Shown here piece by piece: positions 101-18,107 of a stretch of DNA of 53,349 nucleotides; the stretch's first letter is position 1; every line of letters starts with the position of its first letter. Made by a program: the position numbers and the translations under genes. Source of the stretch: an uncultured Candidatus Saccharibacteria bacterium. Its GTDB lineage: Bacteria; Patescibacteriota; Minisyncoccia; Phycocordibacterales; PALSA-1337. Under the pieces are notes generated by a model. That model was given only the letters and a program-made list of their open reading frames with translations. It did not search any database and had not been told where the DNA came from. The stretch is taken from positions 1-53,349 of the forward strand of contig CAZVVX010000001.1 of the NCBI GenBank assembly GCA_964631035.1, written 5' to 3'.

Positions 101-920
101 ATTTTTTATTTTGCCTTTCATTAATGTTTTTTAAACAAATTTCCATATCTTTCCTTCTTTTATTGTGTCGAATTAATGGTAATAACATTTTAATGAAGCA
201 CATTAAGGATACCATATCATTAATATTCAACCTCCACAAATCATTATTTAATGGATAATTACCTTTCCATACATCTCCCTTTTTATAGATTCTACGAAAT
301 TTAGCATTTATTCCCTTTGAAATTAGCCATTCTGAAATAAAAGAGAGTATATCAACATCGTATGAATCTACTTTGAATCTCGCCCTACCTTGATTTAAAA
401 TAAAATTTGCCTCTGCATCTACATATCCAGCAATAAAACTCGGAATTAGTTCGTCATTTTCTTTAATCCAATCCCAAGCTTCATTACTTTTAGGTAGCAA
501 GAAACTAAAAGTGCTATTTAAGAAACAATTTACATGATAATCTCCATTATTGAATGATACAGTTATCTTACCGAATGGACTAAAAAGATTCTCAATTATA
601 CTCACTTGGTCACTTTGAGTTGTGTGGCAACGAACAACTATTGTTTGAGATTTTGGACTTGGTTTATATACATTTAAATCACCAATACGAAAAGCTATCA
701 TATAGGCTTTATTCATAAGATTATTATCAAAATTTATTCTTTTGGTATGTATACGAGCAAAGGCTGGATCTTTAGTTTTAATTTTAAACTCCTTTAAACG
801 GTTCCTAATCGTTATACTATCACAATCGAAAATCTTACCGATCTTTTTTGGAGTTAAATTCTTATCTATATATAAGTGCCTTAATTCTTCAGCGTTAATA
901 TTTATTTTCTTTCGCCCCAT
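87..920 (-). CDS. Free-standing LAGLIDADG-type homing endonuclease with N-terminal HTH-like region
   Basis: 277 aa. Two LAGLIDADG-like motifs ([13 protein letters not shown] and [13 protein letters not shown]) about 100 aa apart. N-terminal [24 protein letters not shown] looks like an HTH. Its 3' end overlaps the lepA start by 14 nt. Confidence 0.7.
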
Positions 921-975: not shown

Positions 976-1671
976 TTAATTCCTAACTTTATATTCTAAT
1001 AGTAAATATGAATCATTTAGTGGTTTAGCATTAATAAGTTCCAAAGTTTTAATTTTCGATAGATCCATTTTTGAGTGTAATGATTCACCATCCATAAGTG
1101 ATGAAGTATTTTTTCCACCTATAAGTGCAGGTGCAACTACTAACAATATCCTATCAACAAGTCCTTCTCTTACAAGAATTGAATTAAGAGTTCCACCTGA
1201 TTGAATTGTTATTCTTTCAATTAAAAACTCTTCTTTAAGTCTAGAGAAAAGATTTTTAAAATCAATTTGATCTTTATATAATATAATCTCTAAATTAGAA
1301 TGTTCCTTCTTAAGATTTGAGGCTGGGTGCAAAAAGTTTGTAGTAATAATAATTACTTTTTTAGATTTTTTGGCAAGATAGATTAAACCACTTTGAGTTA
1401 AGTGTGGCTCATTATCTACAATAATATAGGTTACTGGTGATTTATTTGGTTCATCAGTTCTATTATTAATTCCAATCTTAGCAAACACCCTTCCAGTATT
1501 AAAAGAGAAGAGATCTGTTTGCATTTCTAAATCATAGTACTGTTGGAGACCTTCTTTAAGTCCAGAGATATGCTTGTAATCATTATCAACATCGAGTAGA
1601 TCATTATCTCCAGTGGAAATCTTACCATCAAGTGATGTAAGCATAAATAATGTTGTATACGGTCTATTCAT
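976..1671 (-). CDS. RibD C-terminal domain / dihydrofolate reductase-like family protein
   Basis: 231 aa. N-terminal TLFMLTSLDGKISTG and C-terminal GGTLNSIL...VAPALIGG are typical of the RibD_C/DHFR-like reductase fold. Confidence 0.6.
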   Translation of the reverse strand: MNRPYTTLFMLTSLDGKISTGDNDLLDVDNDYKHISGLKEGLQQYYDLEMQTDLFSFNTGRVFAKIGINNRTDEPNKSPVTYIIVDNEPHLTQSGLIYLAKKSKKVIIITTNFLHPASNLKKEHSNLEIILYKDQIDFKNLFSRLKEEFLIERITIQSGGTLNSILVREGLVDRILLVVAPALIGGKNTSSLMDGESLHSKMDLSKIKTLELINAKPLNDSYLLLEYKVRN

Positions 1672-3389: not shown

Positions 3390-5783
3390 CTATTTTTGGA
3401 TTTTGGTCTTTGTTGTATCAACTGTTTTCTCCTTGACTGGCAAAGTCTTTCTTTGTTCTGGCTTATTATCTACAGGTGGCTTAACGTCTGCAAATGGTGA
3501 CTTGCCTGTGCGTAGATTGTTTAGAATAAATTGAACTTCTTGATTGTCAGAATTTGTCTCTAGTATCTTCTCAAATTGTTGAACAGCATCAATGTTCTTG
3601 CCTAATCTAGCATATGAAAGACCCAAGAAATATCTTGCATTTGCATATTGATCATTTAGTGAAATAGCCTTTGATAGCGCCTCTACTGCAGCAGTATAAT
3701 TTTTGTCATTATACTGTAGGAACCCTAACTGAAAGAATAGAAGTGGATCGTTTGGATTTATTTGTGATGCAACTTGAACTGAAGTAATAGCATCTTTTAT
3801 CTTACCCTGACTTACTTGTATTTGAGCAAGTAGGAATATTGCATCAATATAATCTTGCTTTAATTGTAAAGCATTACCTATATATCTCTGTGCATCTACT
3901 GCATTATTTTTTGAAGCTTCGAGTTTAGCTAGATTTAGATATAGTCCAGGATTATATGGATTAAGATTGATTGCATTTACATAAGATAATTTTGCATTTT
4001 CATATGCATTCGGTATTTGTAGCGTTGAAGCAAGTTCAGATATTCTTGCTAAAGCAATATGATTATAATGATTTGTTGGATCTATTTCAATTGCCTTTTT
4101 TGAATAATTAACAGACTTCTCTATTAATTCACCTATTGATTTTACCTGTTCCTGATCGGGAGTTTTTGAATTCTGAATTTTTTGAGTTAATTCATTAATT
4201 TTTAATATATTAACCTCTGATAGAGCTTGGTAGAATATATCTGAATCATCCCATGATATTGCCTTTTTGAACTTATTTTCAATATTATCTATTTTTTGAA
4301 TACCAGAAGAACTTAATTCTCTAATACCACTATTGAAATAAGCTAATGCAACTGTCTTTTTTATTTGTGAGAATGACCAAACAAATAGAATTATTATTAA
4401 TAAACTTGCTATAACAGTGGTATATTTCTTTATTTCAAATGTTTTAATAAACATTCTTGAAGCAGATACCGAGACAAATAAACCAGTAATTATAAAGACT
4501 GTAAATAATATGAAGTGTGATGGATTATATAAGAATAATATTATCCATAAAAATCCAGTTAGAAAGAATGTGGAAATAACTGTGAATCTACCTGATTCAT
4601 TGTTTAGCTCCCTTAAATTCTTTATACCAGCAATGAATAAGAATACTAATAGCAATAACCACGAAATAAGACCGAATACGCCATTAGTTATTACAAAATT
4701 CGGAATATAGCCTGAACCATTATTGAACTCAACATTCCAGAAAATAGTTTGATTCAATATTTGAGGCTTATTTAATAAGAATTCTGATACAAATCTATTT
4801 GGACCTGCACCAAACAATGTCTTATTTTTTATCACATCAGAAGCTATATCAAGTGAAAGTTGCCATGGAAGATTAATCTCTGATGACTGAATCTTCATTG
4901 ATTTTATTAGTGGCAAGACAATACTTGATCCCCAAACCATCAAAACAATTGAAACTACAAGCAAAACTAAGGTTGGAACTGATATTTTGCTGGTTGAACC
5001 TGATTTTTTTTGAAATCTATAATTATAAATACCGAAGCCTAGAAAACATAATGCCAATAATAACCACATTATTGGACTATTTACCAAAACAACAAAGATA
5101 AAGGATAGTACAAATAAAGCCCAAATATATATCCTCTTAATCCCCTTCAAATCAGTTAAGTTGAGAGTGAAGAATGTTATCAATAGTACTAATGCAGAAA
5201 ATACTCCCAAATCACTCCATTTACCAATCAAAGAAGATGCCGGAGAAGCGAATATACCAAAACTTAATAAAGTAGAATCAAACAATCTTACTATATGAAA
5301 TATCATCAATAGAACAAAAGTAACTAATATAGAACTATAAAGATAATATAATCTTTCCTTATTCTTATATACAAGTTGTATAACTAAGAATGAAGCTAGA
5401 AACATTAATAAAGTGAAGCTAGTTGTTGTTAGTTCAAAACCTTGTCCAAATAATGATTTACTGAAATTAGAACTGAAAAATGTTGATACTATTGTTGATA
5501 TAACAACCAGAGATGCACCATACAATATTGGATGATTTGGTAAGTAGATCGTCTTTTTATTAAATAATGCCAATGTGTAGAAAATTCCTGATAATAAAAC
5601 TCCTATTGATATTATTGTTGCTTTAATTCCATCAAGTGGTGACTGACTAGTGGTACTAAAAGCGATAGCAGATAATATAATAGTTATAAGCAAGATGATT
5701 AACGATAATTTCTCAAACTTAGTACTTGTTATATTCAATTCTGAACCACCCTGCTCAGGATTATTTAGATTTTGTATGTCCAT
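3390..5783 (-). CDS. O-antigen ligase (Wzy_C)-like polytopic membrane protein fused to C-terminal TPR repeats
   Basis: 797 aa. About 470 aa of repeated TM helices, followed by multiple 34-aa TPR-like repeats (A..Y..A...P.N......LA pattern). Confidence 0.6.
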   Translation of the reverse strand: MDIQNLNNPEQGGSELNITSTKFEKLSLIILLITIILSAIAFSTTSQSPLDGIKATIISIGVLLSGIFYTLALFNKKTIYLPNHPILYGASLVVISTIVSTFFSSNFSKSLFGQGFELTTTSFTLLMFLASFLVIQLVYKNKERLYYLYSSILVTFVLLMIFHIVRLFDSTLLSFGIFASPASSLIGKWSDLGVFSALVLLITFFTLNLTDLKGIKRIYIWALFVLSFIFVVLVNSPIMWLLLALCFLGFGIYNYRFQKKSGSTSKISVPTLVLLVVSIVLMVWGSSIVLPLIKSMKIQSSEINLPWQLSLDIASDVIKNKTLFGAGPNRFVSEFLLNKPQILNQTIFWNVEFNNGSGYIPNFVITNGVFGLISWLLLLVFLFIAGIKNLRELNNESGRFTVISTFFLTGFLWIILFLYNPSHFILFTVFIITGLFVSVSASRMFIKTFEIKKYTTVIASLLIIILFVWSFSQIKKTVALAYFNSGIRELSSSGIQKIDNIENKFKKAISWDDSDIFYQALSEVNILKINELTQKIQNSKTPDQEQVKSIGELIEKSVNYSKKAIEIDPTNHYNHIALARISELASTLQIPNAYENAKLSYVNAINLNPYNPGLYLNLAKLEASKNNAVDAQRYIGNALQLKQDYIDAIFLLAQIQVSQGKIKDAITSVQVASQINPNDPLLFFQLGFLQYNDKNYTAAVEALSKAISLNDQYANARYFLGLSYARLGKNIDAVQQFEKILETNSDNQEVQFILNNLRTGKSPFADVKPPVDNKPEQRKTLPVKEKTVDTTKTKIQK

Positions 5784-5840
5784 ATAATAACTAAAACTTA
5801 TTAATAAATAATATAAAATTACCTAGTAAGTATAGCAAAC

Positions 5841-5868
5841 AAATAACCTCCGGTTAAGGAGGTTATTT
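5841..5868 (-). terminator. Hairpin immediately 3' of RNase P RNA
   Basis: AAATAACCTCC-GGTTAA-GGAGGTTATTT gives a perfect 11-bp stem. On the minus strand it is followed by GTTTG. It abuts the P1 3' strand of rnpB. Confidence 0.5.
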
Positions 5869-6240
5869 GATATTACATATCTATAAGCCGAGTTCTGTAT
5901 CTATCTTGCGATAGACGACAATCATTTATCTGGGAGTTAAGTTGCCTTAACCCTCTAGCGGCACTCCAATAGTATTACTACTAATGGCACGGCCTTGCAT
6001 TGAAGTAAGGATTTTGCCGTTGCACTCATAAAATTACCTTTATGATTTATCCACAAAAGTGGATACCCTGCCCTTTCGAGCTGTCTAATTAAAGACGGGC
6101 GTCACTGTTCGCACCTCGCATCTCACGATGGATGGGTGTTACCCACTACTATTCTGCAAAATTTCTTTTGCCAATGCTCGGACTTTCCTCTATTAATATA
6201 CTTACGCATATCAACAGCAATTGTCTGATATGTAATATAT
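5869..6240 (-). ncRNA. rnpB: RNase P RNA, bacterial type A
   Basis: The minus strand contains GAGGAAAGTCCGAGC (complement of 6176..6190), AGTGCAACGGCAAAATCC, GCAAGGCC and CCCAGATAAATGATTGTCGTC...ACAGAACTCGGCTTATAG (complement of 5881..5898). All are collinear with E. coli M1 RNA conserved blocks. P1 pairing is ATATTACATATC (6238..6227) with GATATGTAATAT (5881..5870). The region is locally GC-enriched and has no ORF. Confidence 0.9.
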
Positions 6241-12528: not shown

Positions 12529-12948
12529 ATGAGTAAATTTTACGAAACAAAAGTTAAAAAATTATCTGGTACAAGTTATAAAGATGTATATCCTCAGGCA
12601 TTATCAATTTATAAGAGAATATGTTCAAAAACAAAAAGACGACCTTATATTAGATCAAAATACTTTAATAAAGACAAGATATTTCTTGATTATTTTTGGG
12701 ATCATATCAGAACAAAAAATCCAAATGATCGTACTCGCAGACTAAGATACTATGAATGTGCACTGGGTTTGATTAAAAATTCGAATGTTGAGCCTATTAC
12801 AAAGACAAATCCAAATAAATCCTCTGAAAAATTACATCGCTTCCTCGGAAAAACTAAGAGTGGGGAACTATTTTATGTTCAAATAACTGAACATACTAGA
12901 ACAAAAAATAAACATCTAATGTCTGTATTTCCTACAGAAATAATATAA
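12529..12948 (+). CDS. Hypothetical basic protein (plus-strand accessory gene)
   Basis: 139-aa ORF, Lys/Arg-rich, with no motif I can name. It lies on the strand opposite to the core genes. Confidence 0.4.
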   Translation: MSKFYETKVKKLSGTSYKDVYPQALSIYKRICSKTKRRPYIRSKYFNKDKIFLDYFWDHIRTKNPNDRTRRLRYYECALGLIKNSNVEPITKTNPNKSSEKLHRFLGKTKSGELFYVQITEHTRTKNKHLMSVFPTEII

Positions 12949-13043
12949 AAGAAAAAAACCCTCCGCCAAGTGTGGTGTATAAACCACGGCCGAAAGTCTC
13001 TTTCATTACCAAATATTAACAAATATATTTTTAACGGTCAAAT

Positions 13044-13499
13044 CTATTTCCTACCACCTTTCAACGGATGCAGATGCGCAGCTATACCCATAGCAAGAGC
13101 AATTATTGCTAAATTTTTAATTATGTACTGCCCCTCTAAAGTTGGAGTCATAAATCCCTGCCATGTAACTGTTGTAAGGAAAATGAGAGGTAATACTGTC
13201 ATTATCATATGTGGTATAAGCAGAGCAATTGCCAATCTCTCAAGTCGAGGAATAATAAATGAAATACCGATTATCATTTCATAAATAGAAAATAAAACAA
13301 TGAATACATTCCATGTCATAAATGGTAATGTTGCCTCCATAAGACTCTGAACTAGTGGATTGGCAGGACTTGTACCGATTATTTTTAAAATTCCAAACCA
13401 GAAAAAAACTACAAAAAGTGCAAATCTAGCAAAAGGAATACTTAATCTTCTCAAAAATCCAATAAACCATATATCAAATTTTTCCAAAGAATTTCTCAT
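13044..13499 (-). CDS. Small integral membrane protein (about 4 TM)
   Basis: 151 aa with clear hydrophobic helix periodicity. Preferred over the overlapping plus-strand ORF 12970..13284, which has Cys/Ile-rich nonsense-like composition. Confidence 0.5.
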   Translation of the reverse strand: MRNSLEKFDIWFIGFLRRLSIPFARFALFVVFFWFGILKIIGTSPANPLVQSLMEATLPFMTWNVFIVLFSIYEMIIGISFIIPRLERLAIALLIPHMIMTVLPLIFLTTVTWQGFMTPTLEGQYIIKNLAIIALAMGIAAHLHPLKGGRK

Positions 13500-13533
13500 A
13501 CAATTTATTATAACATATGATAATATATAAAAT

Positions 13534-14097
13534 ATGAAAATCGCCTTCGTCGGACCACCAGCTGTCGGTAAAGATGCTATATCAGATTATATTGCACAAA
13601 AATTCTCATTAAAACACATTTCAAGCGGAAATATTGTTAGGGATTATGTTAAAAATAATAATTTAGGCAGTATAGATAGAGATAATTTAAGAATAATAGC
13701 CAACAAAATGCGTACAGAATTTGGTGGTGATATTTTGGTACAAATAGCTCTGAAAGAAGCTCATGATAATCTAATTTTGAGTGGTTTGCGATCAATAGAT
13801 GAAGTAAATACTTTCAAAAAACATGGTGGCAAAATAATATGCATCACTGCCCCATTAGAAAAAAGATATGAATTAGCCAAAATTAGAAGAAGAATTGATG
13901 ATAATGTATCTCTTGAAAATTTCAAAATATCAGAAGAGAAAGAATATTCAAATCCAGACAAAAATAGCCAAAATGTTCAGAGAGTCATAGAAATGGCTGA
14001 TATTGAAATAATAAATGATGGCAGTCTAGAAGAACTATTTGACAAAGCTACAAAAATAATTGATAACATAAAATCTGTGGATAAGTCATTGACATAA
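13534..14097 (+). CDS. P-loop nucleotide/nucleoside kinase (adenylate kinase / dephospho-CoA kinase-like)
   Basis: 187 aa. N-terminal Walker A FVGPPAVGKD. Size and layout fit small NMP-kinase-fold proteins. Confidence 0.55.
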   Translation: MKIAFVGPPAVGKDAISDYIAQKFSLKHISSGNIVRDYVKNNNLGSIDRDNLRIIANKMRTEFGGDILVQIALKEAHDNLILSGLRSIDEVNTFKKHGGKIICITAPLEKRYELAKIRRRIDDNVSLENFKISEEKEYSNPDKNSQNVQRVIEMADIEIINDGSLEELFDKATKIIDNIKSVDKSLT

Positions 14098-14116
14098 TTT
14101 TATTTAGGAGTATTAT
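14089..14116 (+). promoter_or_regulatory. Candidate sigma70-type promoter for the GC-rich island
   Basis: TTGACA (14089..14094, overlapping the last codons of the kinase gene), 16-nt spacer, TATTAT (14111..14116). The predicted start near 14123 coincides with the abrupt AT-to-GC composition jump at 14120. Confidence 0.4.
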
Positions 14117-14119
14117 TTA

Positions 14120-14395
14120 CCCTCGGAGATCTGACACCTTCCTACTTCGTAGGACCGTCTCGGATCAACAGCGCAAGGACAAAACACAACCCGAAAACAG
14201 GAGACCAACATTATGAATGTGTCGCCCCAAGCACGTCGCCGTCAGCTGGATCAGTTCGCCACCGGTTGTCACGTCGCCAACCATGCCACCACCGTTGCCG
14301 TCACCCCGGACCAGAAGGCCACCACCGTGTTCCCCGGCGGGTCCTGAGTCAACGCCACCGACTCAGCACTCGCAATGGTTCCCAAGGAGGAACCA
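14120..14395 (+). other. GC-rich, C-biased island (by eye about 55-60% GC against about 30% background)
   Basis: Abrupt composition change at both ends. Repeated GCCACC-like motifs. Local hairpins CCTAC-TTC-GTAGG (14141..14153), GAGTC-N9-GACTC (14346..14364) and GGTTCC-N6-GGAACC (14377..14394). Confidence 0.7.
14213..14347 (+). CDS. Candidate 44-aa small protein inside the GC-rich island
   Basis: ATG at 14213 is preceded by AGGAG (14199..14203, 9-nt spacer). It reads MNVSPQARRRQLDQFATGCHVANHATTVAVTPDQKATTVFPGGS then TGA. About four fifths of third codon positions are G/C, i.e. codon structure typical of a high-GC coding sequence. Too short for the ORF track. Confidence 0.35.
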   Translation: MNVSPQARRRQLDQFATGCHVANHATTVAVTPDQKATTVFPGGS

Positions 14396-14432
14396 CAGCG
14401 TAGAGAGTAAAATCTCTACGCTGTATTTTTTT
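14396..14432 (+). terminator. Rho-independent terminator closing the GC-rich island
   Basis: CAGCGTAGAGA-GTAAAA-TCTCTACGCTG (11-bp perfect stem) followed by TATTTTTTT on the plus strand only. Confidence 0.8.
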
Positions 14433-14458
14433 GTTTATTTTTTCAACAATTTACTATT

Positions 14459-15259
14459 TTATGGTTTATTTAAATAATTCTCATTTGAAATGATACTTCT
14501 ACCTATTTCCTTTTCTGCATGCTTTCGAGCATTTCCAGCAACATTTCCACCTCTTCTTGCAACTTTTTTGCTTTTATTGAAGCTTTCTGGCTTTTCTTTC
14601 TGAGAAATTTCAGTTGTCACTTTCTCACCTAGCATAGTAAAAATTAGTTCAAGATCAGTCATATGATCTCTTAGATTCTCTTTTTCCAAACCCTTTAAAT
14701 TCTTGTATTCAGCCGGTGTTATATTGAAAGTAGCTTTAGATATTTCTGCAGTTAAAATGGCATAATCTCTTTGTGTAGAAATACCCCTCTCCTTCCATTC
14801 ATCAGTAAGATTTTGTCTAATTGCTATACCTCTTAGCCTTTTATCGATCCAATCCTTAGAATATCCTTTCTGTTCATAAAGCTTTTTCATCCTTTCCTGT
14901 GCAAGTTCAGGATCTTCGATTTCCTGAATTCTTTCATATCCTACCTTAGCCAACCATCGTTTAAAGATTTCAGCTTTGGGTGATGGAATTGATTGGATTA
15001 TACGAAGAATTCCCTCTGTATTTGAACAAATTATTTTTTGTAACCCTCCTGATGTTTCGATTGGAAGGGGGGTGGCAATTTGCCCCCACCCTTCAGCTAA
15101 TTCTGGATCACGTCGGCGCATGTCTTTTAAATACCCATCTGGTTGACTTGAATTGGTTAGCGCCTCAATAATATCAACAACAACAAACCACCACTCATTA
15201 TTATGTATGGTTTTTCTTATCTTTTTTTCTTCAAATAAAGCAATTCTAGTATTTTCCAT
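14459..15259 (-). CDS. Bro-N domain protein (DinD / phage antirepressor-like)
   Basis: 266 aa. The N-terminal region ..IRKTIHNNEWWFVVVDIIEALT.. and the following KDWIDKRLRGIAIRQNLTDEW region resemble the Bro-N/DinD architecture, common in phage and mobile DNA. Confidence 0.6.
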   Translation of the reverse strand: MENTRIALFEEKKIRKTIHNNEWWFVVVDIIEALTNSSQPDGYLKDMRRRDPELAEGWGQIATPLPIETSGGLQKIICSNTEGILRIIQSIPSPKAEIFKRWLAKVGYERIQEIEDPELAQERMKKLYEQKGYSKDWIDKRLRGIAIRQNLTDEWKERGISTQRDYAILTAEISKATFNITPAEYKNLKGLEKENLRDHMTDLELIFTMLGEKVTTEISQKEKPESFNKSKKVARRGGNVAGNARKHAEKEIGRSIISNENYLNKP

Positions 15260-15347: not shown

Positions 15348-15872
15348 ATGGAAGAAACTCATAAAGAAATAACTGTAAACGATAAGATGCAGTCAAATTA
15401 CAAATATTTCTTAATTGAACCTATTGGTAAAAATTTCGATAAAGAATTTAAGCCTGACCTAACACCAAAAGAAATGCTAGAACTTGGAGTATTCGGTGGA
15501 GTCTATATGAGAGACTGCACACAGGAATTCCCTAGTGATTGGTTCAAAAAAGCTAAATTCGCTTCAGCAGAGACTAATAAACCACAAACTGAATTAAATT
15601 ATTTCGGAATAAATGCTAGCCAACCACTATCAGTATGGAAAGCTAAGGGCTGGATATATCCAGAAGATCCAAGAGGATGGTTCCAGTGGTATTGCCGATA
15701 TTATATGGGAAGAAGAATACCAGATGAGGATATGAGACAAATCAAGAGATGGAAAGCTATAAAGCGCCACATAGCTCAGATAGCCTACAACTGTCGTGTA
15801 GGAGATGAATTCTGCAGAAGTAGGCAACGACAAGCAGTATTGCATTGGGCTTATGATAGTAGGAAGATTTAA
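15348..15872 (+). CDS. Conserved hypothetical protein
   Basis: 174-aa ORF with a Trp/Arg-rich conserved-looking block GWIYPEDPRGWFQWYCRYYMGRRIPDEDMRQIKRW. I cannot assign a family with confidence. Confidence 0.45.
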   Translation: MEETHKEITVNDKMQSNYKYFLIEPIGKNFDKEFKPDLTPKEMLELGVFGGVYMRDCTQEFPSDWFKKAKFASAETNKPQTELNYFGINASQPLSVWKAKGWIYPEDPRGWFQWYCRYYMGRRIPDEDMRQIKRWKAIKRHIAQIAYNCRVGDEFCRSRQRQAVLHWAYDSRKI

Positions 15873-17460: not shown

Positions 17461-17985
17461 TTACTTTTCTGCCTTTTCAAGCAATAGGTCACTATATGAT
17501 ACAGAAATAAGGTCAGACTCTGAAATGTCAAATTGTTTGAGATATTTATTACATTGTTCAAGTAATTTATCTTTTCCAATACTACCATCTTTATCTATAG
17601 CTTCTATTTCCATAAATGTACCTAGTTCCTGAACAGTATCGATATGAAATTTAACATTATCAATAAAATAAATCTCTCTTTTTTTATCAACAACTGTAAG
17701 TATTCCATTTGCATTAACCAATATTGACTTAAGTGAGCTACCTGGGTCAGATTTTAAGAGTATGATATCAGATTGCTTAGGACCCTCTTTATTCTCTCTT
17801 TCATAATAGATTAGATAATTTTCAATATTTCCTTCTCGTAGCTTCAAGCGACCATTATTTACTTTAAAGTATGTATCAATCTGATGATCAATTCCTTTAA
17901 AATCTGCATGGTTAGTTTTCAGAAATTCACGAATTTTATCGTGATTATTTGATTTAGCTTTTATTTCAATATTTATGTGTTTCAT
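17461..17985 (-). CDS. CYTH domain protein (class IV adenylyl cyclase CyaB-like / triphosphate tunnel enzyme)
   Basis: Starts MKHINIEIKAK (the EIK motif of CYTH). The track ORF extends to 18066, but that extension overlaps tRNA-Ser, so the ATG at 17985 is preferred. Confidence 0.65.
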   Translation of the reverse strand: MKHINIEIKAKSNNHDKIREFLKTNHADFKGIDHQIDTYFKVNNGRLKLREGNIENYLIYYERENKEGPKQSDIILLKSDPGSSLKSILVNANGILTVVDKKREIYFIDNVKFHIDTVQELGTFMEIEAIDKDGSIGKDKLLEQCNKYLKQFDISESDLISVSYSDLLLEKAEK

Positions 17986-18020
17986 AATATTATGACTACT
18001 CCGATACTTAACTATCATTG

Positions 18021-18107
18021 CGGAGAGAAGGAGATTCGAACTCCTGATACCCTTTCGGATATACAACCTTTCCAGGGTTGCCCATTCGACCGCTCTGGCA
18101 CCTCTCC
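18021..18107 (-). tRNA. tRNA-Ser (anticodon GGA), class II
   Basis: Minus strand GGAGAGG...CAACC-CTGGAAA-GGTTG, long variable arm TATATCCGAAAGGGTATC, T arm CAGGAGTTCGAATCTCCT, acceptor 3' strand CCTCTCC, discriminator G. No encoded CCA. Confidence 0.9.

Follow-up and report, generated by a model that had tools for sequence, protein, structure and literature searches.

A GC-rich, abundant small RNA of a Patescibacteria lineage that probably encodes a hypervariable small peptide

Several bacterial RNAs of 200 to 500 nucleotides (nt) also encode a small peptide, i.e., RNAIII/hld of Staphylococcus aureus, SR1/SR1P of Bacillus subtilis, SgrS/SgrT of Escherichia coli, and Pel/sagA of Streptococcus pyogenes. 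Genes of the agrD, comC, and blp types are polymorphic precursor genes of peptide signals and bacteriocins that come in "pherotypes." Here, we compare with them a locus in a 53,349-nt stretch of DNA (contig CAZVVX010000001.1; in its whole length referred to as the window), which is chromosomal DNA of a bacterium of the Patescibacteria (candidate phyla radiation, CPR) from activated sludge or wastewater. The locus is a short GC-rich island that lies directly downstream of a kinase-like gene and carries a small open reading frame (ORF). With a confidence that exceeds an even chance only slightly, we propose that the island specifies an autonomous, extremely abundant, decay-resistant RNA, that this RNA is the mRNA of a fast-diversifying small peptide and may have a second function at the RNA level, and that the peptide most likely is a strain-specific interaction factor kept multiallelic by diversifying or balancing selection.

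Analyses of base composition set the island apart from its surroundings. The segment from 14120 to 14395 contains 59.4% GC, whereas the other 276-nt segments of the 53 kb have a mean of 33.3% (standard deviation, 4.2; maximum, 46.4), which corresponds to a z-score of 6.3. Its plus strand consists of 36% C, 23% G, 25% A, and 16% T. The GC content rises a few bases 3′ of a TTGACA-16-TATTAT promoter and falls at a terminator hairpin, so the jump and the drop that a first-pass annotation of the sequence had placed at these two signals are both real. The promoter, described there as near consensus, indeed matches the consensus at 11 of 12 positions and is the top promoter-like match between 12 and 17 kb; its −35 box reaches into the final codons and the stop of the kinase gene. 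Among relatives (L numbers), both boxes and their spacing are kept in L003, L005, L014, L022, L023, L027, and L017 (TTGACG...TAAGAT in the latter), and a TCGGA motif is found 5 to 6 nt 3′ of the −10 box in all lineages. The terminator is likewise genuine, but its stem measures 12 bp instead of the 11 bp first reported; it is kept in L014, where one G/A change preserves pairing, and is present in L022. One contig from run X19 starts exactly at 14120. With its own promoter, an intrinsic terminator, and a detectable RNA, whose ends are seen through contigs rather than mapped from reads, the island is an autonomous transcription unit.

Only the sudden change in composition speaks for an assembly chimera or a contamination, a possibility raised at the outset. 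Ten contigs assembled from different samples (ENA, JGI, and Logan assemblies) carry identical junctions, both junctions are spanned in more than 10 independent assemblies, contigs of the RNA runs X2 to X4 span 13521 to 15143 across both junctions with zero mismatches, and syntenic versions of the island are found in other species. These observations refute chimerism and leave it a probability close to nil.

Expression of the island was assessed by comparing four metatranscriptome assemblies from three studies (X7, X10, X27, and X28) with the entire 53-kb window. The genuine contigs were confined to the island (14136 to 14384), save for the RNase P RNA in X27 (depth, 3 to 4.4). They covered 14138 to 14335 in X7 (depth, 9), 14162 to 14335 in X10, which also yielded a variant allele, 14136 to 14186 and 14322 to 14384 in X27 (depths, 11.6 and 7.3), and 14138 to 14348 in X28 (depth, 5.9). 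No contigs of these four metatranscriptomes mapped to GroEL, SecA, the pilus genes, the kinase, or Bro-N. RNA runs account for 6 of the 12 public runs that hold the variable core of the island. The island RNA is thus the most abundant RNA of the 53-kb region, at a level at least that of RNase P RNA.

Using the kinase gene as an anchor, we found relatives of the locus. The unit lies directly 3′ of the kinase stop codon where the kinase is 100% identical, with three allele types (those of the window, L003, and L005), and also at 94% (L014), 86% (L027), 83% (L021/L022), 78% (L023), and 71% (L017 to L020) kinase identity. It is present in every relative with a kinase at least 71% identical and absent at identities of 68% or less (L024, L028, L029, and L015). 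The search in sibling genomes that had been suggested for the island therefore returned the same architecture at the same site in six sequence-divergent relatives. In L028, the kinase gene directly overlaps an ortholog (76% identical) of the 174-amino-acid (174-aa) gene of the window, which argues that the unit is an insertion into an older adjacency, limited to one subclade. The gene downstream of the unit varies; the window has Bro-N there, on the opposite strand, L003, L014, and L022 have the 174-aa gene, and L017 has a gene for a short-chain dehydrogenase. The unit is hence linked to the kinase side and not to one downstream gene. A MAFFT alignment of whole units had a mean column identity of 58% and was poor in the middle, for which reason no covariance model was built. 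Architecture is conserved; sequence is not.

The conserved layout begins with a predicted three-tier 5′ hairpin, present in all six lineages with differing sequences (38 to 42 nt, starting at nt 9 to 11, −14 to −18.6 kcal/mol), as illustrated by the inner stems CACTCC/GGAGTG in L022, CACCC/GGGTG in L023, and CATCC/GGATG in L014. A CUGAA motif is found in or beside its apical loop in four lineages. The 5′ untranslated region (UTR) has a length of 89 to 94 nt in 6/6 variants, with base fractions of 0.29 to 0.36 for A, 0.28 to 0.35 for C, and about 0.19 for G, and folding predictions gave its linker part a mean probability of being unpaired of 0.49 to 0.64. The stop codon is UGA and is paired within a predicted hairpin in 4/4 lineages, in the 5′ arm in three of them and in the 3′ arm of a small hairpin in L017. 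The second 3′ hairpin is present in L005, L014 (GGTTCCC-CTT-GGGAACC), and L022 and is deleted (10 nt) in L003, and the 3′ UTR measures 68 to 94 nt with a hairpin and a terminator in every lineage. The two hairpins noted earlier downstream of the ORF were thus recovered, the first of them holding the stop codon. The earlier argument that a C-rich, G-poor plus strand speaks against dense pairing holds for the linker and the ORF but not for the two ends, which are predicted to form hairpins.

We then looked for signatures of translation in the ORF. It is preceded by AGGAG (14199 to 14203), located 9 nt 5′ of the ATG at 14213, and its GC content at third codon positions (GC3) is 77%, compared with 22% for the genome, which bears out the description of a leader, a ribosome-binding site, and a 44-codon ORF with G/C-biased third positions. 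The internal repeat reported for both DNA and peptide was also found: GCCACC occurs four times, GCCACCACCGT twice (14285 and 14318), CACGTCGCC twice, and ATTV twice in the predicted peptide. The ATG is located at +89 to +94 in 6/6 variants, ORF lengths range from about 25 to 44 codons across alleles, and the predicted N termini, MNVSPQ..., MKSPPV..., MSPPV..., and MTSPPS..., share a start of the M-x-S-P-P type. There, the codons TCG, TCA, and AGC are used for the conserved Ser and CCC, CCG, and CCT for the Pro residues; the switch between Ser codon families (TCN/AGC) points to selection on the amino acid. In the six variants, which represent four independent lineages, position 3 of the ORF frame is the richest in GC (0.68 to 0.84) and C (0.45 to 0.71), with A at only 0.03 to 0.08, and G is highest at codon position 1 in 5/6 variants, with a tie in L017.

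Length differences between alleles follow the same frame. Alleles with a shared start and stop differ from the window by −27 (L003), −36 (L005), −60 and +3 (X10 allele), and +3 nt (X5 allele), so that none of the frame-breaking changes that would speak against coding was seen among them; the chance that all five are in frame is about (1/3)^5. Indels in the UTRs are of 1, 2, 3, and 10 nt, mostly 1, 2, or 10. Gene callers independently called the 44-aa ORF on two contigs (L008 and L009). A fixed start position, frame-keeping indels, synonymous change in the S-P-P segment, and codon periodicity all suggest that the ORF is probably translated. The predicted peptides are soluble and slightly basic, with a grand average of hydropathy (GRAVY) of −0.48 to +0.20 and a most hydrophobic 15-residue segment of at most 1.45. 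Among the explanations offered by the first-pass annotation, that of a peptide precursor with its own transcription unit is supported by both expression and coding signatures.

Other features of the peptide and its ORF did not withstand scrutiny. The string RRRQLDQF, which resembles a twin-arginine translocation signal, is found in two alleles only, and Gly-Gly as a leader cleavage site or a ubiquitin-like end is not conserved (L017 ends in VTV). Read-through of UGA or a selenocysteine insertion sequence element was rejected because downstream frames are not conserved. An antisense ORF was rejected as well, since L014 has a stop in the codon-aligned minus frame and the minus strand is without a fitting promoter or terminator.

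A number of points weigh against the proposal of an abundant peptide-encoding mRNA. The abundance estimate stems from assembled contigs and not from reads, library GC bias may favor an RNA of 59% GC over mRNAs of 30% GC, and runs X2 to X5 cover the flanks of the island evenly, probably through DNA carry-over or a very abundant population. Translation is deduced from sequence signatures. All three plus-strand frames are open in the island composition, and multiples of three preserve any frame. Shine-Dalgarno sequences are hardly used by the organism, so the AGGAG, although present as first described, carries little weight, and L014 and L022 are without a good one before the ORF. The codons of the ORF are the rarest of the genome, the sequence of the peptide is poorly conserved, and its AlphaFold2 model is weak, with a predicted local distance difference test score of 68 and only one helix (residues 5 to 17). 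Finally, no export, processing, or receptor gene was found linked to the peptide among the neighboring genes examined.

As a separate observation on initiation, the 25 nt upstream of 55 window ORFs contain almost no Shine-Dalgarno sequences, and in many cases a TATAAT-like box immediately precedes the ATG, pointing to leaderless or Shine-Dalgarno-independent initiation of the window genes.

Several of these points would fit a purely noncoding, C-rich regulatory or protein-sponging small RNA (sRNA) whose ORF is a by-product of a stop-poor composition. Such an RNA would act through its unpaired C-rich stretches on G-rich ribosome-binding regions, as C-rich sRNAs of Gram-positive bacteria do, or it would titrate an RNA-binding protein or Rho. 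Its abundance, equal to or above that of RNase P RNA, the apparent selection on UTR composition, the openness of all three frames, the genome-wide lack of Shine-Dalgarno usage, the barely conserved peptide sequence, and the CUGAA motif of the 5′ hairpin are consistent with this explanation. However, indels are in frame in the ORF and not in the UTRs, the N terminus shows the Ser codon family switch and synonymous Pro changes, and the three-base periodicity occurs in the same frame in four lineages with the ATG at a fixed position. Moreover, no conserved candidate seed was found, the C-rich core being the least conserved part, and complementarity of the island to the rest of the window did not exceed chance level, the comparison covering the window alone. 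We therefore regard a solely noncoding RNA as unlikely. The novel noncoding RNA of the first-pass annotation survives as a possible second function of the same molecule, while the coding signatures argue against it as the only one.

The body of the ORF is hypervariable. At four-fold sites of the kinase, the window and L005 are 0.04 apart, and the 5′ hairpin and the last ~110 nt of the island are identical, whereas the ~100-nt ORF core is only ~55% identical, with indels, a difference that looks like a cassette-like replacement. Relative to L003, the island is located at a recombination boundary, with a four-fold divergence of 0.04 upstream and 0.41 downstream. In L014, the four-fold divergence of the kinase is only 0.10, yet the 5′ hairpin, the linker, and the ORF cannot be aligned with those of the window and resemble those of more distant species. 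Allele-specific stretches of the predicted peptide include QLDQFATGCHVANHATTVAVTPDQK and ATTVFPGGS.

Distinct alleles also occur together. In X8 and X9, which are single DNA samples, exact fork points of the assembly graph at 14186 and 14396 delimit two paths with depths of ~29 and 11, joined to shared flanks of depth 35 to 54; one and the same population thus harbors more than one allele. Allelic differences consist of duplications and deletions between short direct repeats. The X10 allele carries a 60-nt deletion between GAYCAG repeats, and the L003 allele (3684 to 3746) contains the 19-nt direct repeat TCGCCCCAAGTCCGTCGTCA twice, 44 nt apart, inside the ORF. The two copies are read in different frames, as SPQVRRQ and RPKSVVN, and an out-of-frame duplication has thereby created new predicted peptide sequence.

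The origin of the GC richness bears on several of the alternatives. C occupies only 7.9% of third codon positions in the genome and at most 15% of those in any window gene, and the twelve genes with the highest values do not include GroEL; it is therefore unlikely that translational selection accounts for the C-ending codons. Both UTRs have the same A/C-rich, U-poor composition, which begins and ends with the transcript, and GC richness is kept in lineages whose neighboring four-fold sites differ by 0.67 to 0.70, i.e., are saturated. Since a passive foreign segment would have drifted toward A+T richness, and since the UTRs share the composition, we infer that it is held by selection on the RNA and does not reflect a recent foreign origin. 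The amino acid makeup of the peptide (Thr, Val, Ala, Pro, Gly, Ser, His, and Arg) follows the nucleotide bias rather than causing it.

These data also bear on the proposal that the island is a micro-gene recently captured from a high-GC organism, e.g., a host, and has retained donor codon usage, a Shine-Dalgarno sequence, and a TGA stop. The GC3 of 77% against 22%, the rare C-ending codons, the AGGAG, and the TGA are indeed all atypical of the genome, and the unit has been inserted between the kinase and 174-aa genes, which were ancestrally adjacent. Yet it is syntenic and equally GC rich in lineages with saturated neighboring synonymous sites, present in every relative at or above 71% kinase identity, with no relative found elsewhere, and its GC boundaries coincide with a transcript start and a terminator that are of host type and conserved. 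In addition, searches of phages, plasmids, viral contigs, 5.8 billion proteins, and 1.84 billion representatives uncovered nothing similar, and when public runs were queried with the variable core alone in search of a high-GC donor, the matches were limited to the same sludge and freshwater metagenomes. With no donor in sight, the horizontally acquired high-GC micro-gene first suggested is not supported, and we consider a recent capture distinctly improbable.

A related idea is that the unit yields an effector destined for a different cell, with the RNA or the peptide delivered to a high-GC, actinobacterial-type host of the episymbiont and the alleles recording a host-parasite arms race. It derives from the Shine-Dalgarno sequence (in 4/6 variants), the GC-rich, C-ending codons, and the UGA stop, all of which would suit translation in a high-GC host and are untypical of the organism's own genes. 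We give it a very small chance. For reference, the stop codons of the 55 window genes are TAA in 38, TAG in 14, and TGA in 3.

Because a short ORF precedes a strong terminator, with the stop codon inside a hairpin, the unit might be a leader-peptide attenuator of the thrL or tnaC kind or another cis-regulatory leader of the downstream gene. Thr, Val, and Ile are frequent in some alleles (TTITIGKTT in L022 and SIIVTTVT in L017), and a co-oriented gene starts 40 to 50 nt 3′ of the terminator in L003, L014, L022, and L017. However, the downstream gene differs between genomes, as described above, and in each case it has a −10-like box of its own directly before the ATG. No conserved antiterminator pairing, i.e., no conserved partner for the 5′ arm of the terminator, was found. 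Furthermore, the RNA builds up to high abundance as a discrete species, and the flanking genes give no signal. An attenuator is accordingly quite improbable.

Database searches placed the unit in no described family. At the gathering threshold, Rfam recognized only RNase P RNA and tRNAs in the whole window; at E values up to 10, positions 13900 to 14600 gave chance matches only (≤20.5 bits), and the relatives gave none, which excludes the known RNA family that had been left as a possibility. Transfer-messenger RNA (tmRNA), 6S RNA, and signal recognition particle RNA were rejected, there being no tRNA-like domain, a negative ARAGORN result, and a hypervariable sequence. BLASTN against phages and plasmids returned only chance matches of 30 to 50 nt, and motif scans of viral contigs returned none. 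Two scans of the metagenome_contigs collection gave no matches either, but this collection seems to be without the lineage and is thus silent on rarity. Searches with the peptide as a single sequence, as a six-allele profile, and by exhaustive phmmer, covering 5.8 billion clustered proteins and 1.84 billion representatives, retrieved the query itself only, and no match was obtained in Pfam, NCBIfam, PHROGs, or PADLOC. We found no paper describing the unit.

The peptide was also compared with functional classes. It has no membrane-spanning stretch, as its GRAVY values indicate, unlike type I toxin peptides. For a precursor of a ribosomally synthesized and posttranslationally modified peptide, no modifying enzyme (radical SAM, YcaO, LanM, or similar) was detected in Pfam, NCBIfam, and PHROG scans of the neighbors and the 20 largest window proteins. 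A diversity-generating retroelement would require a reverse transcriptase, which was absent from the scanned proteins, a set that does not include all small window ORFs; in addition, allele variation consists of indels and duplications and is not A specific. The unit resembles a pherotype precursor in its variable core between conserved ends and its several alleles per population, but among the neighbors examined no gene for processing, export, or a receptor is linked to it, and the core is not preceded by a leader cleavage motif, the GG of the peptide being followed by one residue only.

Returning to the favored explanation of a peptide-encoding, decay-resistant mRNA, these observations may be combined as follows. 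In one clade of a Patescibacteria lineage only, a strong promoter of its own would drive synthesis of a ~310-nt RNA made up of a 5′ stem-loop, an unstructured CA-rich leader, the small ORF, a hairpin holding the UGA, a second hairpin, and the intrinsic terminator. Selection on the RNA would maintain its CA/GC-rich, U-poor composition in an organism whose other RNA is ~67% A+U. Likely benefits are resistance to decay, through which the RNA would reach an abundance no lower than that of RNase P RNA, and an open translation start independent of a Shine-Dalgarno sequence. The product would be a short soluble peptide with a conserved M-x-S-P-P start and a hypervariable body, which would diversify by short-repeat duplications and deletions and by recombination, several alleles being kept in one population. 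Our best guess for its role is strain-specific interaction, related to a host, a competitor, or phages, and the island RNA may in addition act as a C-rich regulatory RNA.

Patescibacteria represent a large and poorly understood part of bacterial diversity that lives on other microbes by means of largely unknown molecules. The top transcript of this 53-kb chromosomal region is an unannotated 300-nt RNA that appears to encode a hypervariable mini-peptide, and it is invisible to databases, the peptide occurring only as itself among 5.8 billion proteins and the RNA in no family library. If its composition is indeed under selection at the RNA level, GC islands would make it simple to spot units of this kind in other reduced genomes. 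As a population-genetic marker, the coexisting alleles provide a handle on strain-level interactions in wastewater communities. Coordinates of the features are given in Table 1.

Table 1. Positions of the island features and of the adjoining genes in the window
Feature	Position	Strand	Remarks
P-loop nucleotide or deoxynucleoside monophosphate (dNMP)-kinase-like gene	13534-14097		Upstream of the island; stop codon overlaps the island −35 box
Sigma-70-type promoter	14089-14116	+	TTGACA 14089-14094, 16-nt spacer, TATTAT 14111-14116
Transcript, ~305-313 nt	14120-14432	+	First bases carry the conserved motif YCTCGGA
5′ three-tier stem-loop	14128-14166	+	GATCTGA...TCGGATC around CCTAC-TTC-GTAGG
CA-rich linker, mostly unpaired	14167-14212	+	Includes the AGGAG
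Small ORF, 44 codons + TGA	14213-14347	+	Predicted peptide MNVSPQARRRQLDQFATGCHVANHATTVAVTPDQKATTVFPGGS; core hypervariable
Internal 33-nt direct duplication	14285-14329	+	GCCACCACCGTT ... GCCACCACCGTG; gives ATTV twice in the peptide
Hairpin with UGA stop (14345-14347) in 5′ arm	14337-14373	+	Fold prediction
Second 3′ hairpin	14377-14394	+	GGTTCC-CAAGGA-GGAACC
Intrinsic terminator	14395-14432	+	12-bp stem (14395-14424), 6-nt loop, T7 (14426-14432)
Bro-N gene	14459-15259	−	PADLOC candidate defense family PDC-S13, full length, E 1e-111; PHROG 15286, E 4e-88

The window carries a class A RNase P RNA, tRNAs, and genes for ribonucleotide reductase, MurJ, SecA, GroEL, LigA, and GatA, together with a type IV pilus cluster. 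The closest genome records are labeled Candidatus Saccharibacteria (kinase 94% identical) and Ca. Nomurabacteria (63%), and the sequence was encountered in runs from sludge, wastewater, and freshwater metagenomes. The Bro-N gene does adjoin the island, as first described, but it lies on the minus strand rather than in a plus-strand patch. It is present in window-type strains and absent from the sibling strains L003, L006, L007, L014, and L022, where the 174-aa gene directly follows the island; Bro-N is thus an accessory insertion immediately 3′ of the island terminator. Other neighbors are genes for a small membrane protein, the 174-aa protein, and an ATP-binding cassette transporter that is absent from L003-type strains. 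The 174-aa gene (15348 to 15872) encodes a protein without a Pfam, NCBIfam, PHROG, or PADLOC family. The DNA encoding its motif KGWIY.EDPRGWFQWYCRYYMGRR is conserved enough that many unrelated RNA-run contigs match 15651 to 15710, with depth spikes of 47 to 81.

Segments of similar composition were noticed at other sites. A further GC-rich stretch, ~200 nt long, is located in L007 (~237 to 462, plus strand); it comprises several hairpins and is equipped with a promoter of the TTGACA type and with a hairpin followed by a T-run. It occupies the position of window coordinates 12948 to 13044, is absent from the window and L003, has no Rfam or tmRNA match, and may be another accessory small RNA. 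In L029, which has no island after its kinase gene, a C-rich segment of ~250 nt (1261 to 1520, minus strand; C, 0.32) with a strong hairpin, AGGCGGCACGGCA...TGCCGTGCCGCCT, is located between a methyltransferase gene and an HTH_3 gene and may be a compositionally similar unit at another site. L003 carries, at 5721 to 5999, a 92-aa ORF of ~50% GC with its own TTGACA-17-TATTAT-like promoter, between a CYTH gene and a tRNA-Ser gene; it is absent from the window.

Elsewhere in the window, ARAGORN detected a tRNA-Ser (GGA) at 18020 to 18107 on the minus strand that Rfam does not list at its gathering threshold. It overlaps the 5′ end of a TTG-started ORF for a CYTH protein (17461 to 18066), whose start was therefore probably called too far upstream. 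Two adjoining minus-strand ORFs of 154 and 156 aa (40977 to 41441 and 41599 to 42069) have the same first 12 bases, TTGTTTATGAAG, and partly similar upstream regions, and probably represent a tandem pair of paralogs next to the type IV pilus cluster. A transposase gene of the IS1595 family (ISXO2-like) at 43378 to 44250 (minus strand) has the highest GC3 and third-position C content of the ordinary genes, and a tRNA-Arg gene (42394 to 42482) is found ~0.9 kb from it.

How, then, does the island compare with described systems? Like the thrL and tnaC leader peptides, it has a short ORF that is rich in Thr, Val, and Ile in some alleles, a hairpin at the stop codon, an intrinsic terminator, and a peptide whose sequence matters little apart from its frame. 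It differs from them in having no fixed regulated gene and no conserved antiterminator and in that the RNA is a stable end product. With the C-rich sRNAs of Gram-positive bacteria, 6C RNA and RsaE/RoxS, it shares C-rich, G-poor single-stranded segments in an abundant small RNA, but it has no Rfam match at E values of ≤10, is much longer, bears coding signatures, and is not conserved in sequence in its C-rich part.

The similarity to agrD, comC, and blp-type precursors lies in the very small ORF, the variable middle between conserved ends, the distinct coexisting alleles, and the mosaic, recombination-like boundaries. In contrast to those genes, no neighboring processing, export, or receptor gene varies with the island, the Gly-Gly is located at the very C terminus instead of before the core, and no signal or leader motif is common to the lineages. 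The dual-function sRNAs RNAIII/hld, SR1/SR1P, SgrS/SgrT, and Pel/sagA resemble it as discrete abundant RNAs with their own promoter and intrinsic terminator, a small ORF (here of 26 to 44 codons) far from the 5′ end, structured ends, and unpaired C-rich stretches. The island is unrelated to them by sequence or Rfam family and has no identified seed or target, its ORF core is hypervariable and multiallelic, and the whole RNA is a compositional island (59% versus 33% GC). It is therefore neither a member of a dual-function sRNA family nor a precursor of the agrD/comC type. It is best described as an abundant RNA bearing a small ORF, unusual for a GC island apparently held by selection, for its hypervariable core, and for an abundance at or above that of RNase P RNA.

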